In this document: positions 1 through 61,659 of the stretch, in pieces
How positions within the stretch are numbered: the stretch's first letter is position 1
How the letters are laid out: the number at the start of each line of letters is the position of its first letter
From: Candidatus Omnitrophota bacterium
GTDB lineage: Bacteria > Omnitrophota > Gorgyraeia > B26-G9
DNA length: 64,000 nt
Assembly (NCBI GenBank): GCA_043826565.1
Contig: JBDRPX010000015.1
Coordinates: 67,317 to 131,316 of the forward strand
Reading direction: 5' to 3'
Program-made: the position numbers and the translations under genes
Notes under the pieces: generated by a model
What the model was told of the DNA's origin: nothing
The model's input: the letters and a program-made list of their open reading frames with translations, nothing else
Database searches by the model: none

Positions 1-278
1 ATTCAATGGCAAACGGACTTGATCACAACAGAATTGGATTAAGCGTTAGCAATAAAAGCTGTTCAAACATAGTTCTTCGCAATAAGGTAAAAAGAATCCT
101 AAGAGAGGTTTTTCGACTCAACAAAGAGATGTTTGGGCAGGGAAGTGATATTGTTATAGTGCTGAAACAATGTCCAGAAGTTGTTTGTTTTGAATCTATT
201 AGGGAAATCATCTCTACTTGTTTGTGCTCAAAATCACAAACAAACGAACCAAAGCAGGATAAGGCGAAAACAGCATGA
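1..278 (+). CDS. rnpA: Ribonuclease P protein component RnpA (5'-truncated by window edge)
   Basis: ORF 6..278; RIGLSVSNK...[14 protein letters not shown] matches the RnpA core (E. coli RIGLTVAKK...RNRIKRLTRESFRL). About 35 N-terminal aa are expected upstream of the window. Followed by yidD-yidC as in the conserved rpmH-rnpA-yidD-yidC cluster. Confidence 0.7.
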
Positions 279-28839: not shown

Positions 28840-28874
28840 AACCTGTAGGGACAGGTTTGTAACCTGTCCGAAAT
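28840..28874 (+). repeat. REP element in the batB-batC intergenic region / batC 5'UTR
   Basis: aacctgtagggacaggtttgtaacctgtccgaaat. Confidence 0.7.
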
Positions 28875-28884
28875 AAGGTAGATC

Positions 28885-31519: not shown

Positions 31520-32268
31520 AAAAATTTATTCTGACATTTTTAATATTAAGCTGTTTTTGCGTAAACGCGTTCGCGGTTTCTGTTGATGAATTGTTTTTTG
31601 AGGCAAACAAGCAATATGCCGACGGTAATTACGCCAAAGCAATTATCCTATATAAAAGTATCCTTTCTCAGGGCACCCAAAGCGGAAATCTTTATTATAA
31701 TCTGGGCAATACCTATTTTAAATTAGGGGATCGGGGGAAAGCGGTTTTAAATTATGAGCGGGCAAAAAGGATAATCTCTCACGATGAAGATCTATTCGCC
31801 AATGATTTGTTTGCCCGGTCTTTGCTGGATATTCAACAGCCCAAAGATGTGTCGCTTTGGTATGAAAAAGCTTATATTGCCATAAGGGATGTTTTTTCCG
31901 CTAAAGTCTGGTTTGTTTTCGCGGCAGTTGTGTTTTTATTGCTCTGTATTATTATCGGTATTTCTATATTTTATGCTCCGTTTCGCAAAAACGCGCAGAA
32001 ACTGAGTGTTTGTTTGGGGCTGCTCTGGATCGGATGTTTTGGGTTTTTTATCCAGCAAAACCAGCTGCAGGTCAAGCAGTTATGGGGAATTGTTATTGTG
32101 CCCAAGGCGGAGGTGCGTTACAGCCCGTCCTATTCCGGAGCGGTGGCTTTTGAGCTGACCGAAGGCATGCGTGCCCAGGTACTTAGAAAAGACGGGGACT
32201 GGAAGCAGATACGTTTAAACCGCACCACCAGCGGCTGGATCGAAGCCGAAGCTGTTGAGGAAATATAA
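31516..32268 (+). CDS. batE: TPR + SH3b protein BatE
   Basis: Signal peptide, TPRs, TM, C-terminal SH3b-like (DWKQIRLNRTTSGWIEAEAV); ATGA overlap with batD. Confidence 0.75.
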   Translation: MKKFILTFLILSCFCVNAFAVSVDELFFEANKQYADGNYAKAIILYKSILSQGTQSGNLYYNLGNTYFKLGDRGKAVLNYERAKRIISHDEDLFANDLFARSLLDIQQPKDVSLWYEKAYIAIRDVFSAKVWFVFAAVVFLLLCIIIGISIFYAPFRKNAQKLSVCLGLLWIGCFGFFIQQNQLQVKQLWGIVIVPKAEVRYSPSYSGAVAFELTEGMRAQVLRKDGDWKQIRLNRTTSGWIEAEAVEEI

Positions 32269-33851: not shown

Positions 33852-34269
33852 TAAATATCCACGAAACAAAAATATTGATGTAACACATTCGTATTGTTTG
33901 ACTTACTGGTTGAGATGTTTTATTTTTATTAGAATTGACATCTAGTTAGCTGGTGGACGCGCGCAAATGGAGTTTACCCAGTAGGTGTTTATGGGTGGTA
34001 TGTACAATTAATGAAAGAATATAAAACCAGAAAATTAAACCGATTGAAAGAATATGATTATTCGCAAGCAGGATATTATTATGTAACGATATGCGTCTAT
34101 GTTCGTGAATGCCTGTTTGGAAATATAATTAATAATAATATGGAATTGAACAATGCCGGCGAAATGATGGGTAAAATATTGCAAAAATTGCCGGAATATT
34201 ATCCAAACATAGACATTGATCAACAGATTGTAATGCCAAATCATATTCATGCGATAATTATAATCAAAG

Positions 34270-34305
34270 AACCTGTAGGGGACGACCTCTGTGTCGTCCC
34301 GGGAC
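34270..34305 (+). repeat. REP element (forward) inside RAYT ORF
   Basis: aacctgtaggggacgacctctgtgtcgtcccgggac; stem GGGACGAC/GTCGTCCC. Confidence 0.7.
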
Positions 34306-34390
34306 AAAATCAAAAACATGATCAAACAATAAACCAAAATGATTTAACAGCCGAAGGACAGGTGTATGGTAACGGACAGACACAAGATAA

Positions 34391-34419
34391 AGGGCGGATA
34401 CGGAGATCCGCCCCTACAG
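34391..34419 (-). repeat. REP element (inverted orientation) inside RAYT ORF
   Basis: gggcggatacggagatccgcccctacagg is the reverse complement of cctgtaggggcggatctccgtatccgccc, near-identical to the REP at 28804. Confidence 0.7.
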
Positions 34420-34682
34420 GACGTTTATCATTGTCAAATATAATTCAACGATTTAAAATGATAACAACAAAACGTTATATTGATGGCGTAAAAAATTATC
34501 ATTGGCAAACATTTGATAAACATTTATGGCAACGTTCATTTTATGACCATATAATCCGCACAAATGATTCTTTAAACAATATGCGCGAATATATTGTTAA
34601 TAATCCCTCAACATGGGATAATGATGAACATAATATTAATAATTTTTTTATAGAGGACAATTATTGTAAAATAATATAAACC

Positions 34683-39626: not shown

Positions 39627-39756
39627 CTAGTTCGTAGCTCATAGCTGATGGCTCATGGGAAAGACAGAAACTGGAAATCAATAATTAAAAAGTAAAAAGC
39701 AAAAGATCAAGAATGCACATTTAAAAATAGGAATATTTATTTATTGTGGTGTATGG

Positions 39757-39791
39757 CTTATAACTTATAACCTGTAACCTGTAACTTATTA
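39757..39791 (+). repeat. Tandem heptamer tract CTTATAA x2, CCTGTAA x2, CTTATTA immediately upstream of gene 39805
   Basis: Read from sequence; followed by tgtagg (GTAG head). Confidence 0.7.
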
Positions 39792-40462: not shown

Positions 40463-42217
40463 ATGCGATTATTGCTAAAGAGATTATTCAGGAGTATCGG
40501 AACAATAGTGCTGATTGGGTTATTGTTTTATCCGGGAATAGCCAGCTCTCAAGAAGATCCTGTTGATGAATTTTTACCGGAAGAAGCAGTTGGGGAAATT
40601 AATGAGTCTTTGCCGGAAGATGCGGCAATCAGCGAACAGGAAATTTTGGAAAACCTGACCATGGGCATAAAAAATAACGCAAACTCGATATCTTTGGATT
40701 TAAAAGGGATGAATGTTGTGGAATTACTGAGGATGCTGGCTTTAAAAACCGGGCTGACGATTGTTCCCAGCAAGGGGGTTAGCGGCCGGATCAATATATT
40801 TTTAAACAATGTAAGTTTTCAGGAAGCGCTGGATATAATTTTAGTTACCCAGAATTTAGCCAGTGAAAGAAAAGGCGATGTTATTTATATTACTACCGCG
40901 GCAGAGTATAAGCGTTTGTACGGGAAAGATTATGTTGAAAACCGGGAGCACAAAAATATAAAACTGCAATTTGCCGACCCGGCAAATGTCTTTGCGGTGT
41001 TGAGCCAGTTGAAATCGGAGATCGGTAAAGTTATTGTGGATAAGGCTTCGGGAATGGTTATTCTGATTGATATCCCGGAAAAACTCGAGGTTATGGAAAG
41101 CGCGGTAAAGAAACTTGAGACCCCTTTGGAAATGGCGGTGTTTGAGCTTAATTATGCCAAGCCGGAAGAAATAAAAGCCGGGCTGAATGAGATCATTACT
41201 CCGGGAACAGGGAAAATAATTTTTGACGAAAGAAGTTCCCAAGTGATCGTTTATGACCTTCCGGAAAAAATGGATAAGATCGAAAGAATCGTAAAAAGTT
41301 TAGACGCGGAGGAGAAAGAGGTATTTATTGAAGCGGATATAGTGCAGGTAACCTTAAGTGACCGGTATCAAAAAGGCATAGACTGGGAAATGATCTCCGG
41401 AGGAAATAATGATTTAGTCAGCGCTTTTCCCCTAACGCCCACGCCGGCAAACTTAGGTAAGATAAGTATCGGAACATTGGCCGGAGATGATTATACGGCA
41501 GTGCTGGAATTGCTCAGGACCCAGGGAGATATAAAAATACTTTCTAATCCTAAACTCGCGGTGGTAAATAATCAGGAAGCCAGAATTTTGGTCGGAACAC
41601 GGGATGCTTATGTTACTCAGACTTTAAGCCAGGCCGAATCAACAACGGTTACTTCGGAAAATATTGAATTTATCGATGTCGGAGTAAAATTAAATGTTGT
41701 TCCGAAAATCAATAATGACGGGTTTATTACCATGACTATTAAGCCGGAAGTCAGCAATGTCGCTGAAACAATCACGACTTCACTTGGCAGCCGTATTCCG
41801 ATTGTGGAAACATCGGAAGTGGAAACGGTAGTGAAAGTAAAAGATAATACTATGATCATGATCGCGGGTTTACGTAAAGACGAAAAAAGAGATCAAAGGG
41901 AAGGTGTCCCCGGCCTGGAAAAATTACCGTTTTTGGGCGGCCTTTTCCGCTCACGGGATCAAAGCACCCGGCAGACAGAAATCATAGTCTTTATTACCCC
42001 GCATATTATTACCGGAGCGGAAGCCTCCCCGGAAGGTTATAAAAGAGAATTTATGGGGAATAAACAAAATGTTACTGAAGCTAAAGAACCAAGCGGCGAT
42101 ATATTCTTAGAAGAATTAGGCCTGGTTAATTCTTTGCCGGAAGATGAAGGCGGGGAAGAAGATATTATGGAAAATGATGATTTTGATTTTGAAGACCAAT
42201 TAAAAGGAATTAAGTAA
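40463..42217 (+). CDS. Secretin (PilQ/GspD/MshL family)
   Basis: Signal peptide, N0-like domain, C-terminal secretin domain (ILSNPKLAVVNNQEARILVG...GVPGLEKLPFLGGLFR). Confidence 0.85.
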   Translation: MRLLLKRLFRSIGTIVLIGLLFYPGIASSQEDPVDEFLPEEAVGEINESLPEDAAISEQEILENLTMGIKNNANSISLDLKGMNVVELLRMLALKTGLTIVPSKGVSGRINIFLNNVSFQEALDIILVTQNLASERKGDVIYITTAAEYKRLYGKDYVENREHKNIKLQFADPANVFAVLSQLKSEIGKVIVDKASGMVILIDIPEKLEVMESAVKKLETPLEMAVFELNYAKPEEIKAGLNEIITPGTGKIIFDERSSQVIVYDLPEKMDKIERIVKSLDAEEKEVFIEADIVQVTLSDRYQKGIDWEMISGGNNDLVSAFPLTPTPANLGKISIGTLAGDDYTAVLELLRTQGDIKILSNPKLAVVNNQEARILVGTRDAYVTQTLSQAESTTVTSENIEFIDVGVKLNVVPKINNDGFITMTIKPEVSNVAETITTSLGSRIPIVETSEVETVVKVKDNTMIMIAGLRKDEKRDQREGVPGLEKLPFLGGLFRSRDQSTRQTEIIVFITPHIITGAEASPEGYKREFMGNKQNVTEAKEPSGDIFLEELGLVNSLPEDEGGEEDIMENDDFDFEDQLKGIK

Positions 42218-42295
42218 AATAAAAACAGAAGATAGAGAATTGAAAATAGAAAATAGTAAAAAATTTTAAATATTTTTTAACCGAAAGGGTGTTTC

Positions 42296-44275
42296 ATGGC
42301 CAAACAAAGAGCGAAGTGTTTTTCATGGATATTGATTTTTTTCAGTATGTGTGTTTTTTTGCGCGCGCAGAAGGCTCTGGCGACTGATTATTCGAATATT
42401 CTGGAACAATACCGGGAAACAATCAAAGCGCAGGAAACAGATATAGAAAAGCTGGAAGAGAAGACTGCGTTGCTGCGCAAGGCTTGCCTCTTACTGAAAA
42501 ACAGCAATGAGATCAATGAAGCCAGAATAAAAGAGCTTGAGGATCAAAGTGAAGAACTGGCCATGGTGTCAAAATTAACCGAACTTTCAAAAAAGCAAAG
42601 GGAAAAGATCACTGACCAGGAAAAAGAAATAAATAAACTCAAAGAACAGCTAAAAGAAGAGCAGGCAAAAAGCCAAACCGCCGGTTCACAAGCTGCGGCA
42701 AAAAAGCAGGAAGAAATAAACAAACTCAAGGAACAGTTAAAAGAAGAACAGGCAAAAAGCCAGGCTGCCGGCGCGCAAGCTGCCGGGAAAATGGAAAAAG
42801 AAATCGACAGGCTAAAAGATGAAAATGCTAAGGTTGTAAAAGAAAATGCCGCATTGCATGGTTCTCTATCCGGCTTAAAATCTTCGGAAATGACGGGAGA
42901 AGACAGACGCAGAAAAACTGAAGATGAGATGATTAACCTTAAAAAGAAAAATGAACTGCTGATTGATTCTTATGAAATGCTTAAAAAGCGCAATGATTTT
43001 AACGAAGAAAGATTAAAAGCATTTGAAGATAGAAGCACCGAATCCCGAATGCTCGGACAGTTAAAGACTAAACTAAGCGAGCAGAGAGACGAGATCGAAA
43101 AAAAAGATGAGCTGATCAGGTCCTTGAAAAAGCAAAGCGAAATGCTTACGGATAAGAACTATTTGATCCGTCAGGAAAAACAATTTTCACTGGAGGCGGA
43201 CCAGAAAAGGATGGAAGAAAAAATCCAGTCGCTGGAGAATTCGATTGATGAGCTAAAAAAAGAAAACTCCGATCTGGCCCGGGAAAACAAAAAAATCCTC
43301 CTGGCTAAGCTTTCCCAGGATGAGTTACAGGAAGAAAGCGGATATTTAAAGGAAGAGGTTGAACGTTTAAAAAAGAAAAACACAGAATTAAGCAGTTCCG
43401 CTTCTTTGGGGAGCGAGACATCCGATGATTTAAAAGATAAACTTCAGTCGCTGGAGAATAAAGCTGATTCTTTAGAGGCAAGTGAGACGCGTCTGACCAA
43501 GGAAAACGCGATGCTGCGCGTTTCTCTCGAAGCGATGGAAGAAGCGGCCCGGACAAAAGTCGATACAATGTCGGAAGATGAAAGAATAAAATCGGTTATT
43601 GAGGCTAATGAACGGCTGGCGAAACTTACCGACAGCCAGTGGCAAATAATTTCTGAGCGTGAGAAAATTGTGACCGCACTTAAAGAAAGCACCCAAAAGC
43701 TGGAGGCGGCTATTGCTAAGATGAAAAGCGAAAACGCGGATACCGTTATCGGCTTAAAGAAAGATATCGCAATTTTAAAACAGGAAAAGCTGATTTTAAA
43801 TGATTCCTGCGAGCTGCTTGAGCAGAAGACAAAATTAAGTGAAGAAAAAGCGCAGTTATGGGAAGGCAAAGCCGCTAGTTTGGGGCTGGTGGAGCCGGAA
43901 GAAGCGCAAGCCGAAGATGATAAGTCCGGGCGTAATTTTTCCGGTAAGTCCAATTCCGGGAAAAAAGAAAAACCCGCGGAAAAGAAAATAAGTACCGATG
44001 AAATTGTCCGCTTGGAAAAAGAATCAGCCCTGGCGCATAAAAAATTAGGAGCAATTTATACGCAGCAAAAACTTTATAAAGAAGCGATTGATGCCTATCA
44101 AAAATCTATATCATATGATACAAGCGACGCCGCGATATATTATCAGCTGGGGCTTTTATGCGCGCAGTTAAAAAACAAACCGGAAGCAATAACCAATTTT
44201 AAAAAGTACCTAACCTTAAAGCCTAAAGCCAAGAACAGGAAAAGGGTTGAGGAACTGATAAAGATGCTGCAATGA
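42296..44275 (+). CDS. Coiled-coil protein with C-terminal TPR repeats (MshN-like?) containing an internal 28-aa tandem duplication
   Basis: 659 aa; signal/TM, ~550 aa heptad-rich K/E region, C-terminal TPRs (AIDAYQKSISYD...). Confidence 0.6.
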   Translation: MAKQRAKCFSWILIFFSMCVFLRAQKALATDYSNILEQYRETIKAQETDIEKLEEKTALLRKACLLLKNSNEINEARIKELEDQSEELAMVSKLTELSKKQREKITDQEKEINKLKEQLKEEQAKSQTAGSQAAAKKQEEINKLKEQLKEEQAKSQAAGAQAAGKMEKEIDRLKDENAKVVKENAALHGSLSGLKSSEMTGEDRRRKTEDEMINLKKKNELLIDSYEMLKKRNDFNEERLKAFEDRSTESRMLGQLKTKLSEQRDEIEKKDELIRSLKKQSEMLTDKNYLIRQEKQFSLEADQKRMEEKIQSLENSIDELKKENSDLARENKKILLAKLSQDELQEESGYLKEEVERLKKKNTELSSSASLGSETSDDLKDKLQSLENKADSLEASETRLTKENAMLRVSLEAMEEAARTKVDTMSEDERIKSVIEANERLAKLTDSQWQIISEREKIVTALKESTQKLEAAIAKMKSENADTVIGLKKDIAILKQEKLILNDSCELLEQKTKLSEEKAQLWEGKAASLGLVEPEEAQAEDDKSGRNFSGKSNSGKKEKPAEKKISTDEIVRLEKESALAHKKLGAIYTQQKLYKEAIDAYQKSISYDTSDAAIYYQLGLLCAQLKNKPEAITNFKKYLTLKPKAKNRKRVEELIKMLQ

Positions 44276-45315: not shown

Positions 45316-45350
45316 TAACAAACAGTTGCGGTTTACAGTGCCACGCACTA

Positions 45351-45379
45351 TTGCGAGCCTTTATATAGTATGGTATACT
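45351..45379 (+). promoter_or_regulatory. Candidate promoter: -35 TTGCGA, 17-nt spacer, TGg-TATACT extended -10
   Basis: TTGCGA 45351-45356; TG 45371-45372; TATACT 45374-45379; would give a ~235-nt leader before ATG 45624. Confidence 0.4.
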
Positions 45380-45575
45380 TTTAGTAGAGGAAATAGTAGG
45401 TGTGTTAAAGGCAAACTCAGCGGAAGCTGAGGACGCAAAGCCGTGCGTCCTGGAGATATTATCGGGATTGGCAGGTTACAAACAGTCAAAAGATATATCT
45501 CAGGCATTGTTTGCCTGGGATTTTTTTTTGAAAGGAAGTCAAAGTGCCACGCACCCGCCCGTCGGAGACGGGCGA

Positions 45576-45610
45576 ATGACAAATGACAAATGACAAATGA
45601 CAAATGACAA
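45576..45610 (+). repeat. Perfect tandem heptamer (ATGACAA)x5 abutting the RBS of gene 45624
   Basis: Five exact copies 45576-45610, followed by atAGGGGGttaatATG. Confidence 0.95.
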
Positions 45611-45623
45611 ATAGGGGGTTAAT

Positions 45624-46571
45624 ATGCCAAGGATGCCAAGAGTGAATGTTGAAGGAGCATTATACTATATCACTTCCCGCGGAGACCGTAATCAGGAAAT
45701 ATTTAAAGATAAGGAAGATTACGCTACTTATATTGAATTATTAAAAAAATATAAAAAGCATCATGGTTTTAAATTATTCTCCTACATTCTGCTTCCGTCA
45801 CACCTCCATCTTTTAATAGAACTTTCGGCAAATTTAACAATTTCCCAGATCATGCACGACCTGAACTCTTCTTATATTAAATACTTTAATAAAAAATATG
45901 AACGCACCGGGCATTTATTTACCGAACGTTACCGCTGTGTATTAATAGAAAAAGACCCTTGGCTTAAGGCCGTTACCGCGCATATGCATTTAAATCCTGT
46001 CCGGGTAAACGCGGCAGAATCCTGGAAAGAATATTCTTTAGGCAGTGCCAAAGCTTATTTGGGGGCAAAAGACACAGAACTTGACCTGACCGAAGAGATC
46101 AAAGAGGTAAATACTCAGCTTAAAGGAGTAAAATACGAAGACTTTTTGGCCAGCCTTAACAAAGAAGAAATAAAGACATTAAAGACAAGTTTTGCCCGAA
46201 AGCTTATTGTCGGGTCCCGGGAATTTAAGAATAAAATAGAAGAAAAAGTCGAAGAGACTAAGACTCAGGAGCCCGAAGAACAGAGTGACCAGGAGAATAA
46301 ATTTATTTTCAGCGGAAGTGTCGCAGTGGTGGTTCTCCTTATTATTGTGGGATTTTTAATTAAAGGGCATTTTGATTTGAAGGAAAAATATAATTTGACT
46401 ACTCATAGAAAAAAAATAGAAATGGAACGCCGGATCCGGGAAGAAAAAGAACTGGTGACTAAGAATTTAAAAGAAAAATATGCCGCGGATGAAGTTTCGT
46501 TTGAAGCCATGCAAAAAAGGCTGGAGATTGAAAAGAAAAAAATAAAAGAACTGGAAAAGAAAATTAACTAG
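45624..46571 (+). CDS. HUH/Y1 transposase-like domain (IS200/RAYT-like) fused to a TM helix and K/E-rich coiled-coil C-terminal region
   Basis: N-terminal ~130 aa with HUH motif PSHLHLLIE and Tyr motif TERYRCVLIE; TM FIFSGSVAVVVLLIIVGFLI; C-terminal KIEMERRIREEKE... coiled coil. Confidence 0.6.
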   Translation: MPRMPRVNVEGALYYITSRGDRNQEIFKDKEDYATYIELLKKYKKHHGFKLFSYILLPSHLHLLIELSANLTISQIMHDLNSSYIKYFNKKYERTGHLFTERYRCVLIEKDPWLKAVTAHMHLNPVRVNAAESWKEYSLGSAKAYLGAKDTELDLTEEIKEVNTQLKGVKYEDFLASLNKEEIKTLKTSFARKLIVGSREFKNKIEEKVEETKTQEPEEQSDQENKFIFSGSVAVVVLLIIVGFLIKGHFDLKEKYNLTTHRKKIEMERRIREEKELVTKNLKEKYAADEVSFEAMQKRLEIEKKKIKELEKKIN

Positions 46572-46632
46572 TGCGCATCGGCTGATGCGTAACCGATTAG
46601 TGTGTATGATTGCCAAAAGGGGAGAGAGCAAA

Positions 46633-49600
46633 ATGAAGATGATGATTAAAAAAACAATTGGTGTGCTACTGGTAGTATTGCTTGTGGTTTTCGGCTTAGC
46701 CAAAGCAGGATATCTGCAGGAAGCCGGTACCTTTCTGCAGGATTCCTGGAATTCGGGCACGAGTTCGACTGTGGCGGTGCATCCGGGCAATCAAAGTAAT
46801 TGGTCGCGCTATACTTCCCGGGACTCAAATATCCTTACTGCCGGAGGGTCAATTTATTTAGCGCCGAATACATTTACGGTGACCGATACCTCGGATACGG
46901 ATTTTGCAAAAGGCACATTAAATAATGTAATTATCAGCGGAACCGGTAATGGTTCTCAGCTGGAACTGACCTCCAGCGTTACGGACCCGTTTGCTTCTCA
47001 ATTAGGTGAATGGTTAAATTTGCCGTCTATACCCGCTCCGGGATTATTTTCTACCTATACCAAAATGGGCAATTATATTTATTGTTTGTTTGGCTCCGGG
47101 GACGGAAAACAGTTCGGCCGCTTTAATCTTACCAGTAAAACCTGGGAATTTTTAACGCCGATTCCGGTGGCGGTAGCGGTTGGGGCAACAATCACTAACG
47201 ACGGAGAATATATTTATGCTTTGCGCGGTTCCGGTTCAAGAGACGCGTATTTTTATCTGCCTCCGGAAGGGCCTGATCCGGACCCGGCAAATACTTTATT
47301 TTCTGTAGCTTCTCCGGCTCCCGGAGAATGGAAGCAATTTCCATCTCTAACTTCCGGGGTTAATTATGGATCTAATATTGTGCGTACCGGCGGTACGCTA
47401 AGCAGTAAGTCCGGAGCTTTATACGCGATGTGCGGATCCGGATCAACAACATTTGTTAAATATGATCCGAATATCGGCGGCGGAGTATGGATGGGCAGAA
47501 GTTCCACACCGGCTACGATCGGAGAAGGCGGAGCATTAGCCTACAAGCCCGGAAGTAATTTTATATACGCGGCCCGGGGATCCCAGACAGATACATTCTG
47601 GAGATATAATATCAGCGCAAATACTTGGGATACCAGCCTTGCGGCAGTTCCTGATCTAGATCCTTCAAATACAACGACAAATATAAATGTTAGATTTTGG
47701 CAGGGTTCGGACCTGTGGTATCCGGGATCAGGTGATTATGTTTATGCCGCGGGTATGTATGATGAATATGACAGCAGTACGGTTTACCGGCGTCAAAACC
47801 GAAGCTTTTTTAAATACGGGCCGTTAAGCGGCGCGGCAACCTGGACCAGATTACCGGATGTTCCGTCATATCTTGGCGCGTATAAATTTATTATTTATGA
47901 TCCGGATGCCGGCGGCCCGACAGAAGGTGATGAACTGCAGTATTTTTCCGGGAAAAATTATACCCGGCCGTGGCGGTTTGATAATGTGAATGAAAAATGG
48001 ATAACCTTATCACAGGCACCGTATGACGCGCCTTATGGTATTAATATTTGCTATCCGGGAACCGGAGATTTTCTTTATTATATTCCGGCAGACGGTAATT
48101 ATGATTTTTACCGCTATTCAATTTCCGGAAATTCCTGGGAAAGGCTTAAAAATCTTCCTTCCGGCCCCAGATACGCGGGTACACGTTTATGTTATTTAAA
48201 CGGATATATTTATTGTTTAAAAGGATATACCTCCGGGTCTTTTTATCGTTATGCCATAGCGCAAACCCCGGGGGCAGACAATTGGGACTATTTAGCTAAT
48301 TATCCGTATACTGACTTAGAATACGGGTCCAGTATTATCGGAGTGCAGATTGCCGGCCAGGATTATATTTACGGGTTAAGAGGGAATGAATATGGTAATT
48401 TTTATCGCTATAATGTTAGCACAGATACCTGGGCAGACACAATGGCCACAATGCCGGATCAGCCGGATGGAAGTTATTTAATATTTCCGAATTATGCGGA
48501 GCCCAACGGATACAAATATATTTACGCGGCGCGCGGCCAGTACAGCAATGACATGTATAAATACGGGCCCATAGAAGAAGATGAAAATTTAACCGATGAT
48601 ATTGACGGAGATTTCCAGACTAAAGGCCGCTGGACCCAGGTTACGGATACGCCCAGTTATTTTCGTTTTTGTGAGAATTACGGAGCTTGTTTGTCTTATC
48701 AGGGAAGCGGGCCGTATATTTACGCGTTTACCGGAGATAATGATGATATTGGGTACGCGTTTAGGTTTGCCCGCTATAATATGGATACTGATGCCTGGGA
48801 TGACCTTGATTCTACTCCCATGAATCAGACTTATTTTGATTGTACCTCAACAAGTGATGCTATCTTCGCGGTGGGTTATTATGGCTATGGCAATTTCTGG
48901 AAATATGATTTGGCTACCCAGCAATGGAATGAGCCGGTTATTGATCAATACCGCAATGAGTTGGGGACTACGGTAGTTGATAGTAATAATAATATTTATC
49001 TGGTATACGGCGGCCGGGACGGGTACCATTATTCACATTTCTGGAAGTTTGATCCGAATCAAAACCGGTGGACGGATATTATTCGCGCGCCGTTTGTTTT
49101 AGCGGCGGGAGTTAAAGCAGAATATCTAACAAGTACAAATTCTATCTATGTTACCGAGGGCCGCGGATCAACGACATTATACAAATATAATGTCGGGACA
49201 AAGGTCTGGAGTGAATGCGCGGAATCTCCGATACGGTTTTGGCGCGGCGCGCAGTTAGCCGCGGATGATGCGAACAATATTATTTATGCTATGCCGGGCT
49301 GGGATATTAGAAATTTTTATGTATATGATGCCGCGGATTACTGGAATCAGCTGGAAAATCCGCCGAAAGCTCATGAAGATATGATCGAAGGCATGGAAGT
49401 AGCAAATGGAAAAGTTTATTTGCTTAGCGGTGATGACGAAGCAGAGTTTTATGAATACTCCCCTTTGCCGACAAATACCTGGCTGCCGAAAACAAAGGTC
49501 GGAGACCCGACTGGTGATGGGTCGGTTTTTGAAACTACCAGCCATGGCGGAGGATTGTTTTATCCGGGCTCCGGAGATTTGATGTATTGTATTACCCGGT

Positions 49601-52600
49601 CCAGCAATAAAGTGCTTTTTACATATTCTCTATCTACGGACCGGTGGAATCAGCTTGCCGAACTGCCGATCGACCCGTATGACCGCCCGACATCAATAGT
49701 GGCCGCGGGAAAACCATGGTTTTTTATCTTTAATTATCGCTGGGATGATTATCTGATGCGCTATCATGTGGCGGAGAATATTTATGACCTGCCGTCTTTT
49801 TTACCCGCGGAAATCAATGAGGATTGCGCTTTAGCCGGGTATAAAGGATATATTTATTATCTAAACAGAGATACGTTTTACAGATATAATGCCCAGCTTA
49901 ATCTTTGGTCGGAGTTGCTGGCTCCGCCGATAACATTTGATGAAACTGATACAACAATGCGGATTGTTGAGTTCGAAGGGCAGCCGTACGCGTATGTTAC
50001 CGGAGGTAATAACCGAAATGGATTTTACCGTTATAGTATTACCAGCAATACCTGGCAGGAATTACCTTCTCCGCCGGCGAATTTTGAAGTGGGAACTTCC
50101 ATGACGCAAAAAGGAAATTATTTATATATACTGCGGGGAGAGTCAAATGCGTTTTGGGAATACAATCTGGTAAATAATACCTGGGCTTTGGCAACAGATA
50201 CGCCGCAATATGTGTATTATGGCGGGCAGGTTGTGTATCCGGGCAGCGGGGATTATGTTTATGTTATGACCGGAAATCATACGGCAAATCTTTACCGGTA
50301 CAATACCGTGGCCAAAAATTGGACCGCGCGGACTCCGGCTCCGGTACCTATGCATAATGCGCATTCAGAATTGATCTATCCCGGTTTTGGCGATTATTTA
50401 TTTGTCCTGCAGGGAGCCTCATATAATACTGATCAAGGTTCATATGTATTTATGCGGTATAAAATGTCTGATCCGGGCGGGGATACCTGGGAAGAACTTA
50501 CGCCGTCGTCTTTTGCGGTTAGGCATCCGGGAACTTTGATCTGGGGGGACGGAGAATATTTTTATGGTATAGAAGGCCGGGGGAACAAGCTGGCCAGATA
50601 TTATTCTTACTGTTTCGGCGACTATACTTCGGGAGTAAAAGAGATCGGCAATCACAGCGGATGGGGCGATGTCAGCTGGATTTTTAACAGTGTGCAGTCG
50701 GCAGCAATTGCTTTTCGCAGCGGGGATACTTTGGATCTATCCGATGCGGATGTCTGGTCTAATGTGGCCGATGTTACTAATGGCCAGGACTTAAGTAATT
50801 CCGCGGCTTGCGCGAATACGGATAAATATATCCAGTATAAGATTACTTTTTCCACGGATGAATTAGCGGAGAGCCCGGCCATTGAACAAATGCAGTTTGA
50901 ATGGGAAAAATATCCGATTTCTCAGACTTTGACCTCCTCTATTTACGATACTACCTTTCTTACCAACAGAATCCTTGATCTTTCCTGGCAGGAAACTCTG
51001 CCCCTGGGAACGGACGCGCGTTTTCAGATGCGCACTTCCGCGGATAATAATACCTGGTCCAGCTGGATGGGAATTGCCGCGGCGCAGGTTTTAACTAATG
51101 ACCTCTCTGATGAGGATGATTATGCCAGATCAAGTAAGATCCAAATAGCTTCCGGGATAGCAAAACTGTTTAAAGAATTAGCTGATTTTAAATATATGCA
51201 GACGATTACAGTGGATAATCTGGGCGGCCCTTTAGAGACCAATAAATTAGTAAATGTGGTGATCCCCAAGACAAATACCCATTTTTGGAATAATGTCAGA
51301 GATGACGGATATGATGTTCGTTTTTATGACGGAACCCAGAAATATGAATATAAACTGATTGATTTTGACCGGGCAAATAAAACCGGAGCGTTCTTAGTTC
51401 AGATCCCGTCTCTGCCCGCGGATGATGAGCTGTCAATATATATGCTTTATGACAGTCCTTCCGCGGATACAGAAAGCAATGAGGCTTTGCGTATTGATGT
51501 AAGAGAATCTGATCTGGCCGCGAGATGGAATTTTGATCAGACTATTGGAAATACTGTCCCGGATTCCTCCGGCAATAATAATAACGGATATTTTATGAGC
51601 AGTCCGTTATGGACCACCGAAGGAAAATTCGGCGGAGCTTTAAGCTGTGACGGCCTTGATGATTATGTAACAGTTCCGAGCACCTCGTCTTTACAGCTTA
51701 CCGGAGATATGACCTTGGGTATCTGGGTGTATCCGGAAAATGTCGGCACTAACTGGTATATGCAGACAATCCATAAAAGATATTGGGGAGAATTTTCCTT
51801 TGGTATTTACCGGGCCGGAAGTTTAGGCTATCTTCAGGGGTATGGTACGAGTTCTTATAATTCCTGGTCGCTTTCCAATTATAATAAAGTTCAAAATAAT
51901 AAATGGCATCATCTGGTTGTGGTCCGAGACGGCACAACCAAGCAGATCACTTCCTATATTAACGGAGTACAGCAGCGTTCCTATAATTATGCCAGCGGCT
52001 ATCAGCCGGTAACCTCATATGATCCGGTAATGATCATGCGCGGATATACCGGGTATGAAATTAAAGGAAAAGTAGACCATACAACAATTCATAATGTTCC
52101 GCTTACGGCCGCGGAAGTTGAACAGCTCTACTTAGGGTATGATCTAAGCAACCCGGAAGATTTGTCGATAAATGAAAGTTCCGCTACCTGTGTAAATCTC
52201 GCGGGATGGTTATATAAAGTTCCGATTACGGTTACGAATAATTCCGCCAGCATCGTAAATAATTCGATTATAACCATAAATGCCGAACAATGGCATGAAT
52301 TCTGGCAGCATGTAAACAGCGACGGCAGTGATGTGCGGGCAGTTGATTCTGATGATACTACCCTGCTTACTTATTATCTGCAGGAATTTGATTCCGCGGC
52401 AAAGACCGGCAGGATCAATGTAGAGATTCCTACGATCCCCGCGTCTTCAAGCAAGACGATCTATTTGTATTACGGTAATAGCGGGGCCAGTAATATTGGA
52501 AACAGTTCTCTAAACTTAGAATGGGATGTGGGTACGTATCCTGATTTTAGCGGATGGTCACGTCCTTCAACCTGGAACACAAACACCGGCATATACATGA

Positions 52601-55600
52601 TGGGCGGATACGCGCGTTTAGGCTTGAGCGCGGACACGCAAAAGACAGTAATCAATCTTCCGGCCGGAACCTATGAAATTGAATTCAATTATTATTATAT
52701 TGATTCCTGGGATTCAGAATACGGCCAGTTATATTGGAACGGTACCAGGATTTGGAATGTATCCAGCAGTACGATCCCGTCCGGGCCTGATGTCGGCGGA
52801 TACAGTACTTACGGCGACCGCGTGGACCATCCGGCGTTTAAGGTTACGGTTGTTCATCCCGGAGGGAACGCGGTTTTACGTTTTGCTTCCACGACAAATG
52901 AAAGCACGGTTAATGAAAGTTTTGGTGTGAATAATATTATTATCCGCACATTACAGTCCTCAACATTGGAAGTTACTCCGCCGTATGTAACGGAAAATAA
53001 TATTTATGATACCGGAACTTATTACACGGACAATCCGGTTGTTCAGCCGATATTGGGTGTTTTTTATGAAGGTAATATATCAAATTTCCAGGCGGTTACT
53101 ACAGAGCCGTCAAATACGGATATCGGGTTCCAGGTTTCGGCGGACGGGTATAACTGGTATTGGTATTCAACCGGTGATTGGCGAAAAACAGAACTGGGAT
53201 ATCTTAATACAAACAGCGCGGCCCAGATAAATTCTAACCTGGTGAATTTTCAGTCAAAATTCCCGGCTGGTGATTTTTATTACCGGGCATTTTTAAATTC
53301 TAGCGGTACGAATACCCCGGAACTCAATGAGGTGAGAATTACTTTAACCAGTCCGCCGAGTTATTATTTTGACGCGGCGGCCGGAGAGGCTGTAAATACG
53401 ATCAATGAAGATTGTCTGGATGACCGGTATATTCAATACCGGACAACTTTGTATTCCTACGGAGAAAGTACGCCGGTTATTGACAGTGTCAGTATTGATT
53501 ATATTAAATCAGAAGTAAATGTAACCTCCCCTAACGGCGGTGAGGAATGGCCGGTTGCTTCGGCTCAAACAATCACCTGGACTTCCGCGGGTGTTGATGA
53601 CGCGGCTTCGCATGTGAAGATAGAATATTCATCAAATAACGGAACCAGCTGGAATACGATAATTGGTTCCACGGCAAATGACGGCAGTTATCCCTGGACT
53701 GTGGAAAATTCCGCTTCTCCTAATTGTTTAGTCCGGATCACTTCTGTGGAATTTCCCACGGTTATTGATCAGTCTGACGCGGTATTTCAGATCATGGGCC
53801 TTATTCTTACCGCGCCCAATGGCGGCCAAGTATGGGAAGTAAACCGGATCCATACGATTACCTGGACATCTTCAGGTACGGTCAGTAATGAATTAACTAT
53901 TGAATATTCTACGAATAATGGCACCAGCTGGGCCGGAACTTTGGCAACTCAGCGGCCGAATACCGGTACTACTAATTGCCAGATGCCGAATGTTAATTCT
54001 GATGCGGTTCGGATCCGGATATTTGACTCCCTTAATACTAATGTTATTGATGTTTCCGACGCGGTTATGTCCATTGTTCCGGCACCGGTGATCACCATAA
54101 ATACTCCGAACGGCGCAGAGCAATGGATCGTGGGCGATACTTATACCATAGATTGGCAAACCAATTCCCGCCAGTTCTCGGCGAATGTAATATTGGAATA
54201 TTCCAAAGATAATTTCAGTACAACTGTTCCCATTATTACTAAGAGTATTGGAACTGCGGCCGGCCCAAACAATAATGATGACATTTCCGGAAGCCATGAC
54301 TGGGTAGTTCCGGAAGATATATCCACGACAGTAAAGATAAGAATAAGGGAAGAAAGTATTCCTCCGGCACGGGATACGCAGAGTATTATCTGGGATATGT
54401 CGGATAATAATTTTTCGCTTATTTTCCCGTATATTACGATAAGTTCACCGCAGGAAGAGGTTACCTGGGTTTCCGGAGATGCTCATGATATTACCTGGAC
54501 ATTCTTTGGAACAGTAAGCAATGATCTGCTCCTTGAATATACAACTGACGGGTCTAATTTCACGACTATTGACGATAACCAAGCTAATGACGGATTATAT
54601 TCCTGGACTGTTCCGGATGAAGATTCAGCTACGGTGCAGGTAAGAATTACGGATAATGCCTGGAATCAGGTTACGGGGATTTCTCCGGTATTTACAATTA
54701 TTCCCTATCCGGTGCTTAAAGTTTTATATCCGAACGGCGGTGAAGTATTGGCGATTGGAGCTACTTATGAACTTCGCTGGACTTCTTTTGGCCAGAAATT
54801 AGCCTCCGGCGGCGCGGATTATTTTAATATTGATATCTGGTATTCCGCGAATAATGGAACTACCTGGGCTGTTGTCAGTTTAGGCCAGGCTAATGACGGG
54901 TCTTTGAACTGGCAGACGGCTGATGCCGAAACCACGGAGGCTTTAGTCAAAGTTGAAGATAGTAATGACCTGCTGATTGTGGATACTTCGGATGCTGTTT
55001 TTGAAATCACAAATCCGGTTCTGACAATTACTTCTCCGAACGGCGCGGAAGGGTGGTACGCAACCGGTACGTATGATATAACCTGGGATTCTTTGGGAGC
55101 GGTCAGCAATAATCTGTTATTAGAGTATTCAACTAATGCCGGTGTTTCCTGGACAACGATTGCCGGCAGCCAGAATAATGATCATGTTTATTCCTGGACG
55201 GTTGCCGATGTTATTTCTGATCAGGTCAAAATAAAAATTACCGATAGCAATCGTCCTTTGGTTTGGGATGATTCTGATGCTAATTTCAGTATTCTTGCTC
55301 CGACAATTACAGTTACCGTACCAAATGGCGGAGAAGAATGGATTATCGGAACAAGCCATGGTATAGAATGGGCCACACAAGGCGGAGATGTTAACGCGGT
55401 TAAAGATAATCTGACGATCCAATATTCATCTAACGGAGGAGGGTCTTGGAATGATCTATGGACCGGCTTGGCAAATTCCGGAAGTCAGGCGTGGGAAATT
55501 CCGGATGATTTGTCCGATAACTGTCTGATCAGGATTTTTGACGCGTTCCGTCCGGCTACCATAGACCAGTCTGACGCGATGTTCGCGATTAAGATTCCGT

Positions 55601-58600
55601 ATGTGGATATTATTGCGCCGAACGGCGGAGAAAGCTGGCCGATCGGAACAACTCAGAGTATAAACTGGGGGTCTTTGGGAACAGTCAGCAATAATCTGGT
55701 TATTGAATATTCTAAAGATAATTTTGTCAGCAACATTAATACAATTTCTACTTTTGAAGCAAATGACGGTTTATATGAATGGCTGTCTGTAGCGGATGAT
55801 TATTCGGTAACAGTTAAAATCAGGATCACTGACGCGGATAATCCGTCAATTACCGATACCTCAGAAACAGCGTTTACGATCGCGTATCCGTTAATTACGG
55901 TTACGGTGCCGAATGGCGGAGAAATATGGACCGTCGGTGATACGGAAAATATTACCTGGACTAACACCGGAAGCGTGGGCAATGATCTGAAGATCGAATA
56001 CTCTAAAGACAATTTTAACGCGGATACGAACATGATTATTGTTTCCACGGCAAACACCGGCAGTTACAGCTGGCCGTCAATCCCTAATGATGTTTCCGCT
56101 TCGGTAAGGGTACGGATTACGGATAATACCCGTCCGGTAGTTTGGGACAGATCTAACGGGAATTTTACGATTTTGCCGATTCCGGCAATTACGATTACCG
56201 CGCCCAATGGCGGAGAAATATGGCGTTATGGAACAACCCAGAGTATTACCTGGGAAGATAATGGCGGGTTGATTTCCAATAATCTGACCATAACATATTC
56301 TACGGATAATGGAACTACCTACACCGGAAGTATTATTACCGGAGCGGCAAATATCGGTTCCTACAGCTGGAACATTCCGGATGATGTACATCCGCAATGT
56401 TTTCTTAGGATCCAGGATGCGCAAAGGCCGTCGACAAATGACATTTCCGATGCGTCATTTATCATTGCTGATCCGCGGATCACCATAACTTCACCTAATG
56501 GCGGAGAAGTCTGGGCGGTTGCTGATCAGGCGCCGATAACCTGGACTACCGAAGGCACGATCAGTAATAATCTGATCCTGCAGTATTCCGGTAACGGAGG
56601 ATCCAGTTATACGCAGGTTGCTTCCGGAATAAGTAATACCGGAGCATATACCTGGACAGTTCCGGATGATGTTACGACTAATGCTTTATTTGAAATAACT
56701 GACGGAAACCGGCCGGTAAGCAAGGATATTTCGAATGCGGTATTCCGGATCATTGCTATGCCGCTAATTGATATTACAACTCCGGACGGCGGCGAAGAAT
56801 TTGTTCTGGGAGATACCTCATCTATTACCTGGACATGGTTAGGTTTATCTATTTCAAATAATTTATTGATTGATTATTCCGGAGACGGATTTGCTACGCG
56901 CAGAGTAATTGCTTCCGTGGAAGCAAATGACGGTTTGTATACCTGGGCGATCCCGGATGACGCGCTTACCGGCTCGACACTTAAGATGAGGATCACTGAC
57001 GGTAATCGTACGGAAATAACTAATCAGTCCGGCGGATATTTTAGAATTCGCGGTGGTTTTACAATCCTTTCACCTAACGGCGGTGAAAACTGGGTAGCTA
57101 AATCGGATCATTCAGTTACCTGGCAGACAAAAGGAACTATTTCTAGGGTAAAACTTGAATACAGTACGGATAACGGATTGAACTGGTCTATGGTCGCTTC
57201 GAATGTGTCTAATGCCGGAGCCTACACCTGGATATTACCGGATGCGCAGTCTGTGCAGGCAAGAATCCGGATTTCCGATGTGGATGATCCAACTGTAAAT
57301 GACCAGAATGATGCGACGTTTAATATTGTTTATGCTTCGGTTGTGTTTAATGTTTTGGACTATGATACGTTGCAGCATTTGCAGGATATAAATACGAATG
57401 AGCCGTATACCGGATGGAATGATTCCGGAGTTAATTCTCCGATTAGCCGGATGCAGCAGTACCCCTATGGCAACTATACGACATTTTTCTCTAAAACCAA
57501 CTACATTGATAATAGTGTTAGCTGGGTAGCGCCAAAATCCGGGACCGATACGTATGTTATCAATACCTATCTGGAAAACTCCGCGTCCGCGCAGGTTACA
57601 TGGGAAGCGGTATTGACCTACAGTTTTAGCCCGGCCACGGATTCCTTAAGCGGTGTCGGTTCTTTGCAGAGAAAAGGAAAACTTGTCGGAACTAATGAAT
57701 TAGAACGCGTGGATATGGGGCCGGCAGTATTGACTATTTATGAACCGAATTCCACGGTGATTAGGAATCTAGTTTCCGCTAATGCTCCCGGAGATAATGG
57801 TATGTATAACTTGATGCTTACTAATACTGATTTTGAATCCGGACAAGTATATCCGGCAACTTTGACAATTACTTATAGATCAAGAGAATATACTTCCAGT
57901 GCCAGTATTGATGTTGGTTCGGAGATTCTGCAGTATGAGTTCTTTACCCAGACAGCTACTCAATTGGCCGCTTCTGTGGCGCAGATTGAAACAGCAGTCG
58001 GGGCGGGGACTCAAGCGACAATTAACAAGCTGGATGAAACCAGAGCATCTTTAGAAAATAAAGTTGACAGTTCCGCGGCAACTGTAATCGGGGTAGTAAC
58101 AGATACCAAAACAGAGCTTACGGCTAATCTTTCTTCAACCCGGGAAAGCTTAGAAGGTACCTTGGCGGCTACCAGCGAAGATTTGCAGACTACTATGAAA
58201 TCAAACATTCTCAACCGTGAGAAATCGGTCAAGGGCGGAGCTGATCTGATGATCCGATATAGAACATATTCCGGCTTAATTCCCAAGATCGATGTTTATG
58301 ATACTCAGAATGTCCAGAGAATTGATAAAGGACTTATGACTGAGATGGGCACAACCGGTATTTATGAATACAAGGTCAAGTTCTATAACAGTTGGGGGCA
58401 GGGAGATTGTACAATTGTTTGTTCGGAAGAGACCAAGGGGACTTTAGACGCATTGACAATTACGATTGTTAGGTCTACAGTAGATGATATAGCCGGACAG
58501 ACTTCGGCGATCTTAGGTTCAACCTCAGGATTAAGTGATATTGGCCAGGTGGTGGATATCTTAGGTAATCAGATCGGCCTGATTGAAGCATCATTCTCCA

Positions 58601-59070: not shown

Positions 59071-59103
59071 TATAAAAATCAAAAAGATAAAACATTATAC
59101 AAT

Positions 59104-59138
59104 TAACATTTAACAATTAACAATTAATATTTAACATT
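59104..59138 (+). repeat. Tandem AT-rich heptamers (TAACATT TAACAAT TAACAAT TAATATT TAACATT) abutting the RBS of gene 59161
   Basis: Read from sequence; followed by tctatatAGGGAGGGaaaccATG. Confidence 0.85.
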
Positions 59139-59160
59139 TATCTATATAGGGAGGGAAACC

Positions 59161-60038: not shown

Positions 60039-60932
60039 ATGCCTGAAGAGAAATTAAAATTTCTGATTGTTGAAGACAACTTAGCTGACCGGGAAAAAAT
60101 AGCCTCAATGGTGCAGAGTTTTGGGTCTAAATGCGCTTTTGCTTCTAAATCCCGGGAGATCGCGGAGATTCTTAAAAAAGAAGAATACGCGCTGGTTTTG
60201 ACGGCATTGACTTTACCTGACGGAAACGCGGTAAATGTTACCAGGCAGGCTTTGGAGATATATCCGTCAATAAGTGTTATTGTCATGACCTCTTATTATT
60301 ATATTGAGGAAGCGATCCGGGCCATGGCCATCGGTGCGTACGGGTATATAACCAAACCTTTTAACCGGGTAGAGGTGGAAGTTGTCCTGGCCCGGGCCAT
60401 AGAAAGATATTATATTTTAGCCGGCGAAGATAGAAAAAAACACTATATGCAGCTTTCGGTTAAAGACGGCCTTACCGGGATTTATAACCGCAGATTCCTA
60501 GACCTTCATCTAAATCATAAAATAGACAGCCTGAAAAACGAGATAACCAAAAAGTTTTCCGTAATGATGGTTGATATTGATGATTTTAAGAAATTCAATG
60601 ATACTCAGGGACATCAGGCCGGAGATAAATTGTTGTGCGGGGTAACTGATATATTTAAAGATTCTTTGCGATTTTCTACAAATGACGTTATTTGCCGCTA
60701 TGGCGGAGAAGAGTTTTGCCTTGTTCTGGATAAAGCTGATAAAAAATCGGCGGCCTTAATCGCGGAAAGAGTAAGAGAAGTAGCGGAATTTTCTTTGCCG
60801 GTAACGCTGAGTATCGGGCTGGCTACTTATCCGGAAGACGGCATGAATAAAGAAAAATTGATCGCCAGCGCGGACAAGGCTTTATATAAAGCCAAAAATA
60901 CCGGTAAAAACAAGGTTGTCCTAAGCGCGTAA
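60039..60932 (+). CDS. Response regulator with REC + GGDEF (diguanylate cyclase) domains
   Basis: REC (LIVEDN...D), GGDEF with intact RYGGEEF active site. Confidence 0.9.
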   Translation: MPEEKLKFLIVEDNLADREKIASMVQSFGSKCAFASKSREIAEILKKEEYALVLTALTLPDGNAVNVTRQALEIYPSISVIVMTSYYYIEEAIRAMAIGAYGYITKPFNRVEVEVVLARAIERYYILAGEDRKKHYMQLSVKDGLTGIYNRRFLDLHLNHKIDSLKNEITKKFSVMMVDIDDFKKFNDTQGHQAGDKLLCGVTDIFKDSLRFSTNDVICRYGGEEFCLVLDKADKKSAALIAERVREVAEFSLPVTLSIGLATYPEDGMNKEKLIASADKALYKAKNTGKNKVVLSA

Positions 60933-61566: not shown

Positions 61567-61659
61567 TTGAAAGTAGAAAGTAGATAATTGATGGTTGAGA
61601 TTTGTAAAAATGGTTGTTTTCCAATATTCAATACTCAATTTTCAATATTCTAACAGAAT

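Follow-up and report, generated by a model that had tools for sequence, protein, structure and literature searches.

A c-di-GMP-I riboswitch and operator-like DNA boxes as a probable composite control region of a giant-gene operon in Candidatus Omnitrophota

What kind of element occupies the spacer at positions 45316-45623 of a 64-kb stretch of Candidatus Omnitrophota DNA (the window)? The spacer separates a 96-codon open reading frame (ORF) from a 315-codon ORF, after which a 4101-codon ORF follows; Omnitrophota are uncultured, possibly predatory nanobacteria with giant genes beside secretion and pilus loci. Coordinates are window positions, and all features lie on the + strand unless stated. 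An earlier description made from the letters alone (the sequence-only reading) had listed a promoter, four inverted repeats, a heptamer tract and a 12-nt direct repeat here, and had taken the spacer for a cis-regulatory RNA or protein-binding leader and not a random spacer. All of these features are present in the sequence, and both halves of the proposal gained support, the first from a riboswitch and terminator with covariation and the second from a conserved, phased box. We conclude, with a probability of roughly 80%, that the leader is a composite control region of the operon, combining a cyclic di-GMP (c-di-GMP) riboswitch with operator-like DNA boxes. The 238-nt leader is more stably folded than its shuffled versions, with z = -4.9 and none of 200 shuffles giving a fold as good.

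The core of the leader is, by its sequence, an ordinary and well-scoring member of a known riboswitch class. An Rfam scan, which the sequence-only reading had proposed, gave a c-di-GMP-I (GEMM-I) aptamer (RF01051) that occupies 45400-45484. The match itself (45400-45483, +) covered the full model (1-87) and scored 60.3 bits, compared to a gathering score of 35, with E = 2.6e-9 for the whole 64-kb window. No other Rfam family exceeded its threshold anywhere in the window and ARAGORN found nothing, and a small RNA gene, transfer RNA or transfer-messenger RNA in the leader was thus rejected. The two arms of the aptamer, P1a (45411-45436, with the GNRA loop GGAA at 45422-45425) and P1b (45439-45477), are built entirely of standard pairs in the window. 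P1a contains the stem-loop CTCAGC-GGAA-GCTGAG that had been described as the first of the four hairpins; the stem and its GNRA loop are present, but the coordinates had been given one base too far to the left and should be 45416-45431. P1b had been omitted from that set of structures. The four hairpins differ in kind: the first is the only aptamer helix among them, the second competes with the aptamer, the third is a terminator and the fourth lies outside the conserved device.

The bases G45410, A45437 and C45479 of the window correspond in the alignment to G20, A47 and C92 (Vc2 numbering), which are the ligand contacts in the solved crystal structures. These three columns are invariant in an alignment of 24 sequences and nearly so in 72 sequences, the exception being a U at C92 in the closest relative of the window, locus L035. 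The P1a loop, GGAA in the window, is GAAA, GCAA, GUAA, GGAA or GAGA in the orthologues. The overall fold is common to c-di-GMP-I, to its GGC variant (c-di-GMP-I-GGC, RF03167) and to the c-GAMP class (GEMM-Ib), and it is the diagnostic bases that differ. The GGC model scored 57.2 bits on the window in a permissive scan, under its gathering score of 59, and expects a G at the A47 position, where the window and all of the orthologues have A. Aptamers selective for c-GAMP typically carry A at position 20, and position 20 is G here. Both variants were therefore rejected and, since A47 is A and G20 is G, the aptamer was assigned to the canonical c-di-GMP type. The window aptamer is predicted to bind c-di-GMP.

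Conservation was examined in two collections of loci that contain the gene downstream of the leader, the 315-codon ORF, whose product has a Y1-transposase-like domain (the Y1-like gene). In the genome collection, a profile scan with the Y1-like family gave 34 loci, 26 of them Omnitrophota-type loci with upstream DNA. Rfam placed a same-strand c-di-GMP-I aptamer 100-250 nt 5' of the Y1-like gene (437 nt in L006) in 23 genome loci, and inclusion of L016, discussed below, brings the aptamer to 24 of the 26 Omnitrophota-type loci; it was not found in L018 and L030 among these 26, nor in four proteobacterial loci. A metagenome collection of a further 80 loci was searched with a home-built covariance model made from the first 24 aptamers, and 69 of the 80 matched. 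The loci without a match are mostly contigs that end within ~150 nt of the gene, and four of them still show the terminator and boxes described below. The covariance analysis against homologous loci that had been suggested showed strong covariation of the aptamer across the 24 orthologues: 98% of cells were paired, 12 of 19 pairs had changed on both sides and none of 500 shuffles reached the observed values. When the 3' partners were slid by 1-3 columns as a control, pairing fell to only 29-42%. We regard the identity and the conservation of the aptamer as shown by these results. Loss of the hairpins from orthologous leaders had been named as the outcome that would count against a structured leader; hairpins 1 and 3 are kept in the orthologues but hairpin 4 is not.

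The promoter is conserved along with the aptamer. A consensus scan recovered the sigma-70-type promoter TTGCGA-17-TGgTATACT, with an extended -10 element, at 45351-45379, exactly where the sequence-only reading had placed it. Of 75 non-redundant leaders, 67 have a promoter of the form TTGACA-16..18-TGnTATACT at 15-30 nt 5' of the aptamer, and each of these scores at least 10 of 13. Transcription would then start near 45386. A second sigma-70 promoter 3' of the terminator was rejected because there is no -10 element at a usable distance.

An intrinsic terminator at 45497-45529 provides the expression platform. Its 9-bp stem (45498-45520, -14 kcal/mol) is followed directly by T9 at 45521-45529; the third hairpin of the sequence-only reading, CAGGCA/TGCCTG, is indeed there, but it is only the top of this longer stem and the T9 had been missed. 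A hairpin abutting a run of T7-T9 was found in all 25 leaders examined. The terminator begins 14 nt past the aptamer in the window. The linker measures 5-32 nt in 75 of 75 leaders, with no overlap; aptamer and terminator can therefore coexist.

The strands of the aptamer have a second set of partners. The aptamer core AGGCAAAC (45409-45416) is complementary at 8 of 8 positions to GTTTGCCT (45509-45516) in the loop and 3' arm of the terminator, and the distal strand of P1b, GGAGATAT (45452-45459), pairs with ATATCTC (45494-45500) in the terminator 5' arm. Together these two pairings are predicted to form an antiterminator. The pairing of core and terminator covaries between clades, being GGCAAAC:GUUUGCC in some and GGUAAAC:GUUUACC in others. 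The second hairpin of the sequence-only reading, AGGACGCA paired with TGCGTCCT at 45430-45451, is also present, as an alternative pairing that excludes the outer part of P1a as well as P1b. Its two strands come from P1a (3' side) and P1b (5' side), which makes it incompatible with the aptamer. The unconstrained minimum free energy (MFE) structure contains it, as do co-transcriptional snapshots once the 5' arm of the terminator has been made, and it is predicted from these folds to be part of the ligand-free structure.

The two arrangements are nearly isoenergetic in the window by nearest-neighbour energies, with -44.6 to -45.6 kcal/mol for the fold containing the antiterminator and hairpin 2 and -43.4 kcal/mol for aptamer plus terminator. 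In the co-transcriptional snapshots an aptamer-like fold was best when the transcript ended at 45484, and the alternative fold was best once the terminator 5' arm existed. We propose the following sequence of events. The conserved extended -10 promoter would start an RNA whose first ~100 nt fold as the c-di-GMP-I aptamer. Without ligand, the core (GGCAAAC) and the distal P1b strand would pair with both arms of the terminator, giving an antiterminator and read-through by RNA polymerase. With c-di-GMP bound, those strands would be locked in the aptamer, the terminator would form and transcription would stop.

The Cd1 riboswitch of Clostridioides difficile, an OFF switch of the same family, has this arrangement: aptamer and intrinsic terminator coexist and compete with an antiterminator made of aptamer strands, and c-di-GMP favours termination (PMC9262584). 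The window shares this layout, with its non-overlapping intrinsic terminator and an antiterminator that would borrow aptamer strands, and it is from the match in layout to Cd1 that an OFF switch is predicted. By this analogy, high c-di-GMP probably stops transcription of the giant surface-protein operon. With a c-di-GMP riboswitch found phylum-wide directly 5' of the giant-gene operon, the prediction is that high c-di-GMP turns these loci off.

The second component of the leader is the 12-nt direct repeat AGTGCCACGCAC, found as described at 45337-45348 (box 1) and 45543-45554 (box 2). The two copies are exact, each with the inverted-repeat core GTGCCACGCAC (45338-45348 and 45544-45554). Box 1 ends 2 bp 5' of the -35 element, and the centre of box 2, at 45549, is exactly 20 bp past the last T of the terminator. 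The 12-mer occurs nowhere else in the 64 kb, even when 2 mismatches are allowed, and the expected chance occurrence of an exact 12-mer repeat within ~330 nt is about 0.003 by our own arithmetic. A conserved box of the form GTRCC-N-SGYAC occurs in almost every leader, often widened to a 17-bp palindrome AAAGTRC-N3-GYACTTT, and hardly occurs elsewhere in the window or in the DNA flanking the loci. Within a genome the two copies share one variant (GTGCCACGCAC, ATGCCACGCAT, GTACCACGTAC or GTGCC[A/T]GGCAC), with the inverted symmetry preserved.

The centre of the first downstream box is 18-22 bp past the end of the T-run in 76 of 83 non-redundant leaders and exactly 20 bp in 49 of them, as in the window; in contrast, the aptamer-terminator linker and the distance from box to start codon vary several-fold. 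A second box is found either just 5' of the -35 element or 3' of the first box. The former is the case in the window, L001-L004, L006, L007, L009, L012, L020-L027, L035 and many metagenome loci. In leaders with a downstream second box, the two centres lie 20/21, 31-33, 42, 53/54 or 62-64 bp apart, equivalent to two to six turns of B-DNA, and among 24 dissimilar leaders there is a Rayleigh peak at a period of 10.5 bp (R = 0.93, phase 6 degrees). In some loci the second box overlaps the first codons of the gene, ATGCCACGCAT reading M-P-R-I; this is not so in the window. The conservation, spacing and phasing of the box are observations; its function has to be argued from them. The boxes are helically phased, vary in concert and include a copy that is not transcribed, which favours an element of duplex DNA over one of RNA and points to the box being a DNA operator for a dimeric protein. 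RNA polymerase reaches about 20 bp beyond its active site in the downstream direction. A protein bound at this fixed distance would therefore meet the polymerase sitting on the U-tract, which is the basis for the idea of a roadblock. As a hypothesis, a dimer bound to the boxes could loop out the promoter, or could modulate termination by blocking the polymerase at the U-tract. Set at a fixed distance from the terminator, the phased box offers a well-defined case for asking if a DNA-bound factor and a riboswitch work together.

We could not match the box to any described element. A BldD-type box (TNAC-N5-GTNA) gave no match. A sigma-54 promoter within the box (TGGCAC-N5-TTGC) was dismissed by eye, since neither the GG/GC elements nor their spacing are right for one on either strand. 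The region of box 2 and the adjacent G+C-rich hairpin was also considered as a further or degenerate aptamer and rejected, since the home-built covariance model gives only one match in the window.

In some leaders the aptamer is altered or missing. L035, the closest relative (77% protein identity), keeps box 1, the promoter, a near-identical aptamer, the terminator with compensatory changes, and box 2. Its aptamer (4081-4170) is the one with U in place of C at the C92 contact, GGTTATGAGC compared with GGTTACAAAC, which could be a specificity variant, an error or decay. In L016 (4580-4775) an insertion of ~110 nt splits the P1a region, so that Rfam misses the aptamer and the home-built model matches the 3' half only; the terminator and two boxes are intact. 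In L030 (2080-2230) the promoter, terminator, box and gene are kept and the aptamer is gone. The 3' end of the aptamer is still there in a near relative, L042 (1-127), so the loss in L030 is recent. The unit of terminator and box has thus outlived the riboswitch in L030. L082 (100-364) has the usual promoter, terminator and boxes, and between them a different G+C-rich RNA of ~150 nt without a match to the aptamer model, which could be a diverged aptamer or a replaced sensor. Finally, L018 (2250-2700) and L106 (1-434) represent a sub-family of Y1-like genes without a riboswitch; a divergently transcribed small ORF is found instead, which by eye looks like an XRE-type helix-turn-helix protein, and box-like sequence occurs only at start codons.

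A candidate for the protein that binds the box is encoded by the first regulated gene (45624-46571, 315 aa). Its start region, 45613-45626, comprises a ribosome-binding site (AGGGGG, 45613-45618) and the ATG at 45624, and the start is conserved as MPRMPR in homologues. The product is identical to a protein of a Candidatus Omnitrophota metagenome-assembled genome and has ~90 homologues of 35-77% identity, almost all from Omnitrophota or from metagenomes of the Planctomycetes-Verrucomicrobia-Chlamydiae group. It contains a Pfam Y1_Tnp domain (E = 1.9e-11). A direct phmmer search of the PDB with the protein found nothing, so that a profile search was needed. In an AlphaFold2 model with a mean predicted local distance difference test score of 85.6, the N-terminal ~160 residues gave as the best PDB fold match 4ER8_A, the Escherichia coli RAYT (the transposase-like protein associated with repetitive extragenic palindromic (REP) sequences) in complex with a REP hairpin, with a TM-score of 0.73, followed by the IS200/IS608/ISDra2 transposases. 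The N-domain is followed by a helical middle region, a hydrophobic, transmembrane helix (FIFSGSVAVVVLLIIVGFLI) and a long C-terminal helix.

The profile alignment places the consensus Tyr of the family (A-Y-I-H-L-N-P) opposite Tyr115 of 4ER8, which is the RAYT nucleophile. The window protein has His at this position (TAHMHLNP, residues 118-125), where Cys or Phe is found in other clades; the HUH motif varies at its first His within the family and is degenerate in some clades. Judged from the model and the alignment, the 315-aa protein appears to be a conserved, single-copy, probably non-catalytic protein that is anchored in the membrane and has a nucleic-acid-binding fold, and not an active transposase, and the Y1-like family looks domesticated. 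The gene annotated as a transposase beside the giant gene would thus be a conserved, probably non-catalytic membrane protein and not a mobile element. This RAYT-like protein is the leading candidate for the box-binder because no other nucleic-acid-binding protein is always found with the box. We also considered a more specific proposal: the box would be the operator through which this non-catalytic, membrane-tethered, domesticated RAYT protein autoregulates the giant-gene operon, its site would lie exactly one RNA-polymerase footprint (20 bp) past the riboswitch terminator, and the protein and the c-di-GMP-bound RNA would jointly decide termination, by a roadblock or by contact with the polymerase at the U-tract. 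We hold this version only tentatively and consider it rather doubtful; if true, riboswitch and DNA operator would be coupled in a new way, and the protein would represent a new class of transposase-derived transcription factor.

Several observations weigh against our reading of the leader and have to be set beside it. On the RNA side, P1 of the window aptamer is weak and irregular, the shuffled-arm controls for antiterminator complementarity are only weakly significant for any single locus, and the thermodynamic MFE retains the terminator without ligand in 47 of 75 leaders. Read-through would therefore need a kinetic, transient antiterminator, as proposed for Cd1, or another factor. On the DNA side, the box core of the window is short, with only a 4+4 inverted repeat (GTGC-cac-GCAC), and the spacing between upstream and downstream boxes, 186-283 bp, has no obvious phasing. 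With the exception of the RAYT-like protein, no conserved DNA-binding regulator was found in the nearby genes scanned. As for that protein, RAYT and IS200 proteins bind single-stranded hairpins, not duplex operators, and the candidate is predicted to be anchored in the membrane.

The likeliest of the rival explanations is that of an ON switch, or of a constitutive terminator with read-through provided by a factor that the box recruits, a DNA-loaded antiterminator with a logic like that of lambda Q or of RfaH at ops. The retention of the terminator in the ligand-free MFE of 47 of 75 leaders speaks for it, as does the persistence of terminator plus box without an aptamer in L030, and the invariant 20-bp distance ties the box to the point of termination. 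The regulated genes are, moreover, very long, and processive antitermination typically serves very long genes. An ON switch is hard to reconcile with a terminator that shares nothing with the aptamer, so that the ligand cannot directly prevent its formation. As for an antiterminator loaded at the box, the annotated neighbourhood showed neither a NusG paralogue nor another antiterminator gene, and multiple phased boxes, together with boxes 5' of the promoter, suit an operator better than a single loading site. We therefore consider this explanation unlikely, and continue to favour an OFF switch with an operator.

Could the box act in RNA? It might then serve as a processing site or small hairpin, begin a leader peptide, or bind a translational repressor that also recognizes the similar sequence at start codons. 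The downstream copy does lie in the read-through transcript, some variants keep their symmetry through G-T (in RNA, G-U) pairs, for example GTGTCAGGCAC and GTGCCAGGTAA, and in several loci the box coincides with the start of the coding sequence, as in the M-P-R-I case. In the window, GTG-CCA-CGC... begins an 11-codon frame after AGGAAG, but this frame is not conserved, and the RNA stem would have only 4 bp there. One copy is 5' of the -35 element, where it is not transcribed, in the window and in about 40 other leaders, and the spacing tracks the 10.5-bp helical repeat of DNA, which has no meaning for RNA. An RNA role of the box appears quite unlikely on these grounds.

It is very improbable that promoter and riboswitch form a mobile or excisable cassette with the direct repeats as its ends or target duplication, and that the adjacent transposase-like protein works it as a DNA-rearrangement switch comparable to the flagellar switch beside Cd1: the repeats do flank promoter, aptamer and terminator, the next gene has a RAYT/IS200 fold whose relatives bind and cut DNA hairpins, and L030 is missing exactly the aptamer segment with terminator and box still in place. 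Against this, the cassette keeps its syntenic position throughout the phylum and the window has no other copy of it, many lineages have both boxes 3' of the terminator where they flank nothing, His, Cys or Phe stands in for the catalytic Tyr in the window protein and several clades, the HUH motif is degenerate in others, and the end-points of the L030 deletion are not at the boxes, because the promoter is retained.

The composite control region can be compared with three kinds of known system. With Cd1 (RF01051, 5' of flgB) the window shares, beyond the terminator layout, P1a with its GNRA loop, P1b, the G20, A47 and C92 positions and the location in a 5' leader, and Cd1 also acts beside a cis-acting DNA element in the same leader. 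In Cd1 that element is an invertible segment, whereas here it is a pair of short, phased, operator-like boxes at a fixed 20 bp from the terminator. The phylum and the genes differ as well, the genes being flagellar in C. difficile and, in Omnitrophota, those for a RAYT-like membrane protein and a giant Kelch/LamG protein, and P1 of the window copy is unusually weak in comparison.

The gal OE/OI, lac O1/O3 and ara O2/I1 loops resemble the boxes in having two identical short inverted-repeat sites, one by the -35 element and one in the leader ~200 bp away, and in close-set sites being separated by integral helical turns. The half-sites are short here, and the downstream site is locked to the end of the riboswitch terminator; to our knowledge, a site locked in this way to a riboswitch terminator is not a feature of the gal, lac or ara loop systems.

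The REP/RAYT system (TnpA-REP, 4ER8) is similar in the RAYT fold of the adjacent protein and in a short palindrome beside the gene. It differs in the palindrome, since the box has only two copies in 64 kb, a stem of 4-7 bp (REP stems are longer) and no GTAG-type 5' tetranucleotide, and in the protein, since that of the window lacks the catalytic Tyr and has a transmembrane helix and a coiled coil. With few copies, a short stem and a Tyr115 equivalent that is His in the window and variable across the family, the locus was not classed as a REP/RAYT system.

A second, shorter ORF with a Y1_Tnp domain (34011-34679, 222 aa) is found 11 kb upstream, with no box or riboswitch beside it. Near the start of the 315-aa gene, the region of the ribosome-binding site and start codon (45620-45636) is 76% complementary over 17 nt to the distal part of P1b (45445-45461), which may be chance or may be a translational layer. 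Two ORFs that overlap the riboswitch, 45402-45593 on the + strand and 45361-45603 on the - strand, are unconserved and were rejected as genes.

The second regulated gene (46585-58890) encodes a secreted protein of 4101 aa whose domains are of the Kelch, LamG, DUF2341 and Ig-like types. In L001, L004 and L035-type loci the Y1-like gene is followed by the conserved N-terminal region of this protein; in L023-type loci three small exported proteins come before that region. On the 5' side of the leader lie genes for a secretin, tetratricopeptide repeat (TPR) proteins and a small membrane protein, in an order that is repeated in distant loci. Published giant-gene loci of Omnitrophota are flanked by a conserved type II secretion-like locus on the upstream side and by pilZ genes on the downstream side, and neither this description (10.1101/2023.11.21.568195) nor a 2026 preprint on complete Omnitrophota genomes mentions a riboswitch. 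A full-text literature search for Omnitrophota together with riboswitch gave incidental co-occurrence only, and the searchable descriptions note pilZ and GGDEF genes near the giant genes, with no riboswitch.

Between box 2 and the ribosome-binding site lie two features that are specific to the lineage. The first is the fourth hairpin of the sequence-only reading, the G+C-rich CGCCCGTC-gga-GACGGGCG, present as described at 45556-45574, and the second is the heptamer tract, (AATGACA)x5.4 at 45575-45612, whose copies are 100% identical. The hairpin is unique in the window and missing from L035 and all other leaders, and was therefore rejected as a REP-like repeat, being a single copy in 64 kb that is absent from L035. 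In L035 an unrelated stretch of ~20 nt takes the place of both hairpin and tract, and because they are absent from this closest relative we regard the two as lineage-specific filler. The heptamer tract is moreover a genome-wide habit and not part of the device, since arrays built of various heptamer units are found in about 19 other spacers between genes of the window.

These arrays have 3-8 copies, occur in most intergenic spacers, usually just 5' of the next gene, and include the units TCAAAAN, TTTTGAC, ACTTGTG, ACAAGTC, CAATATT and CTTGAGA; they resemble the short tandemly repeated repetitive (STRR) heptamers of cyanobacteria. They were located at 2350-2399, 2502-2535, 4408-4464, 5253-5283, 7764-7810, 7901-7923, 9850-9874, 17713-17739, 21881-21923, 22033-22059, 24685-24713, 24805-24851, 26709-26742, 39637-39658, 39757-39789, 42216-42260, 59091-59140 and 61622-61650. 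L035 carries one heptamer array (3911-3945).

Three further observations concern the surroundings of the operon. A response-regulator GGDEF diguanylate cyclase is encoded at 60039-60932, 1.1 kb past the giant gene, and could supply ligand locally. This cyclase and the pilZ genes of the published loci give the riboswitch a c-di-GMP context. On the 5' side of the leader, an 87-nt tandem repeat (2.1 copies, 80% identity, 42618-42804) lies inside an ORF for a 659-aa coiled-coil/TPR protein. Farther upstream, a MoxR-DUF58-BatA/VWA-VWA-TPR-BatD cluster of the aerotolerance-operon type occupies 23613-32268, and is preceded by a two-component system at 21143-23554.

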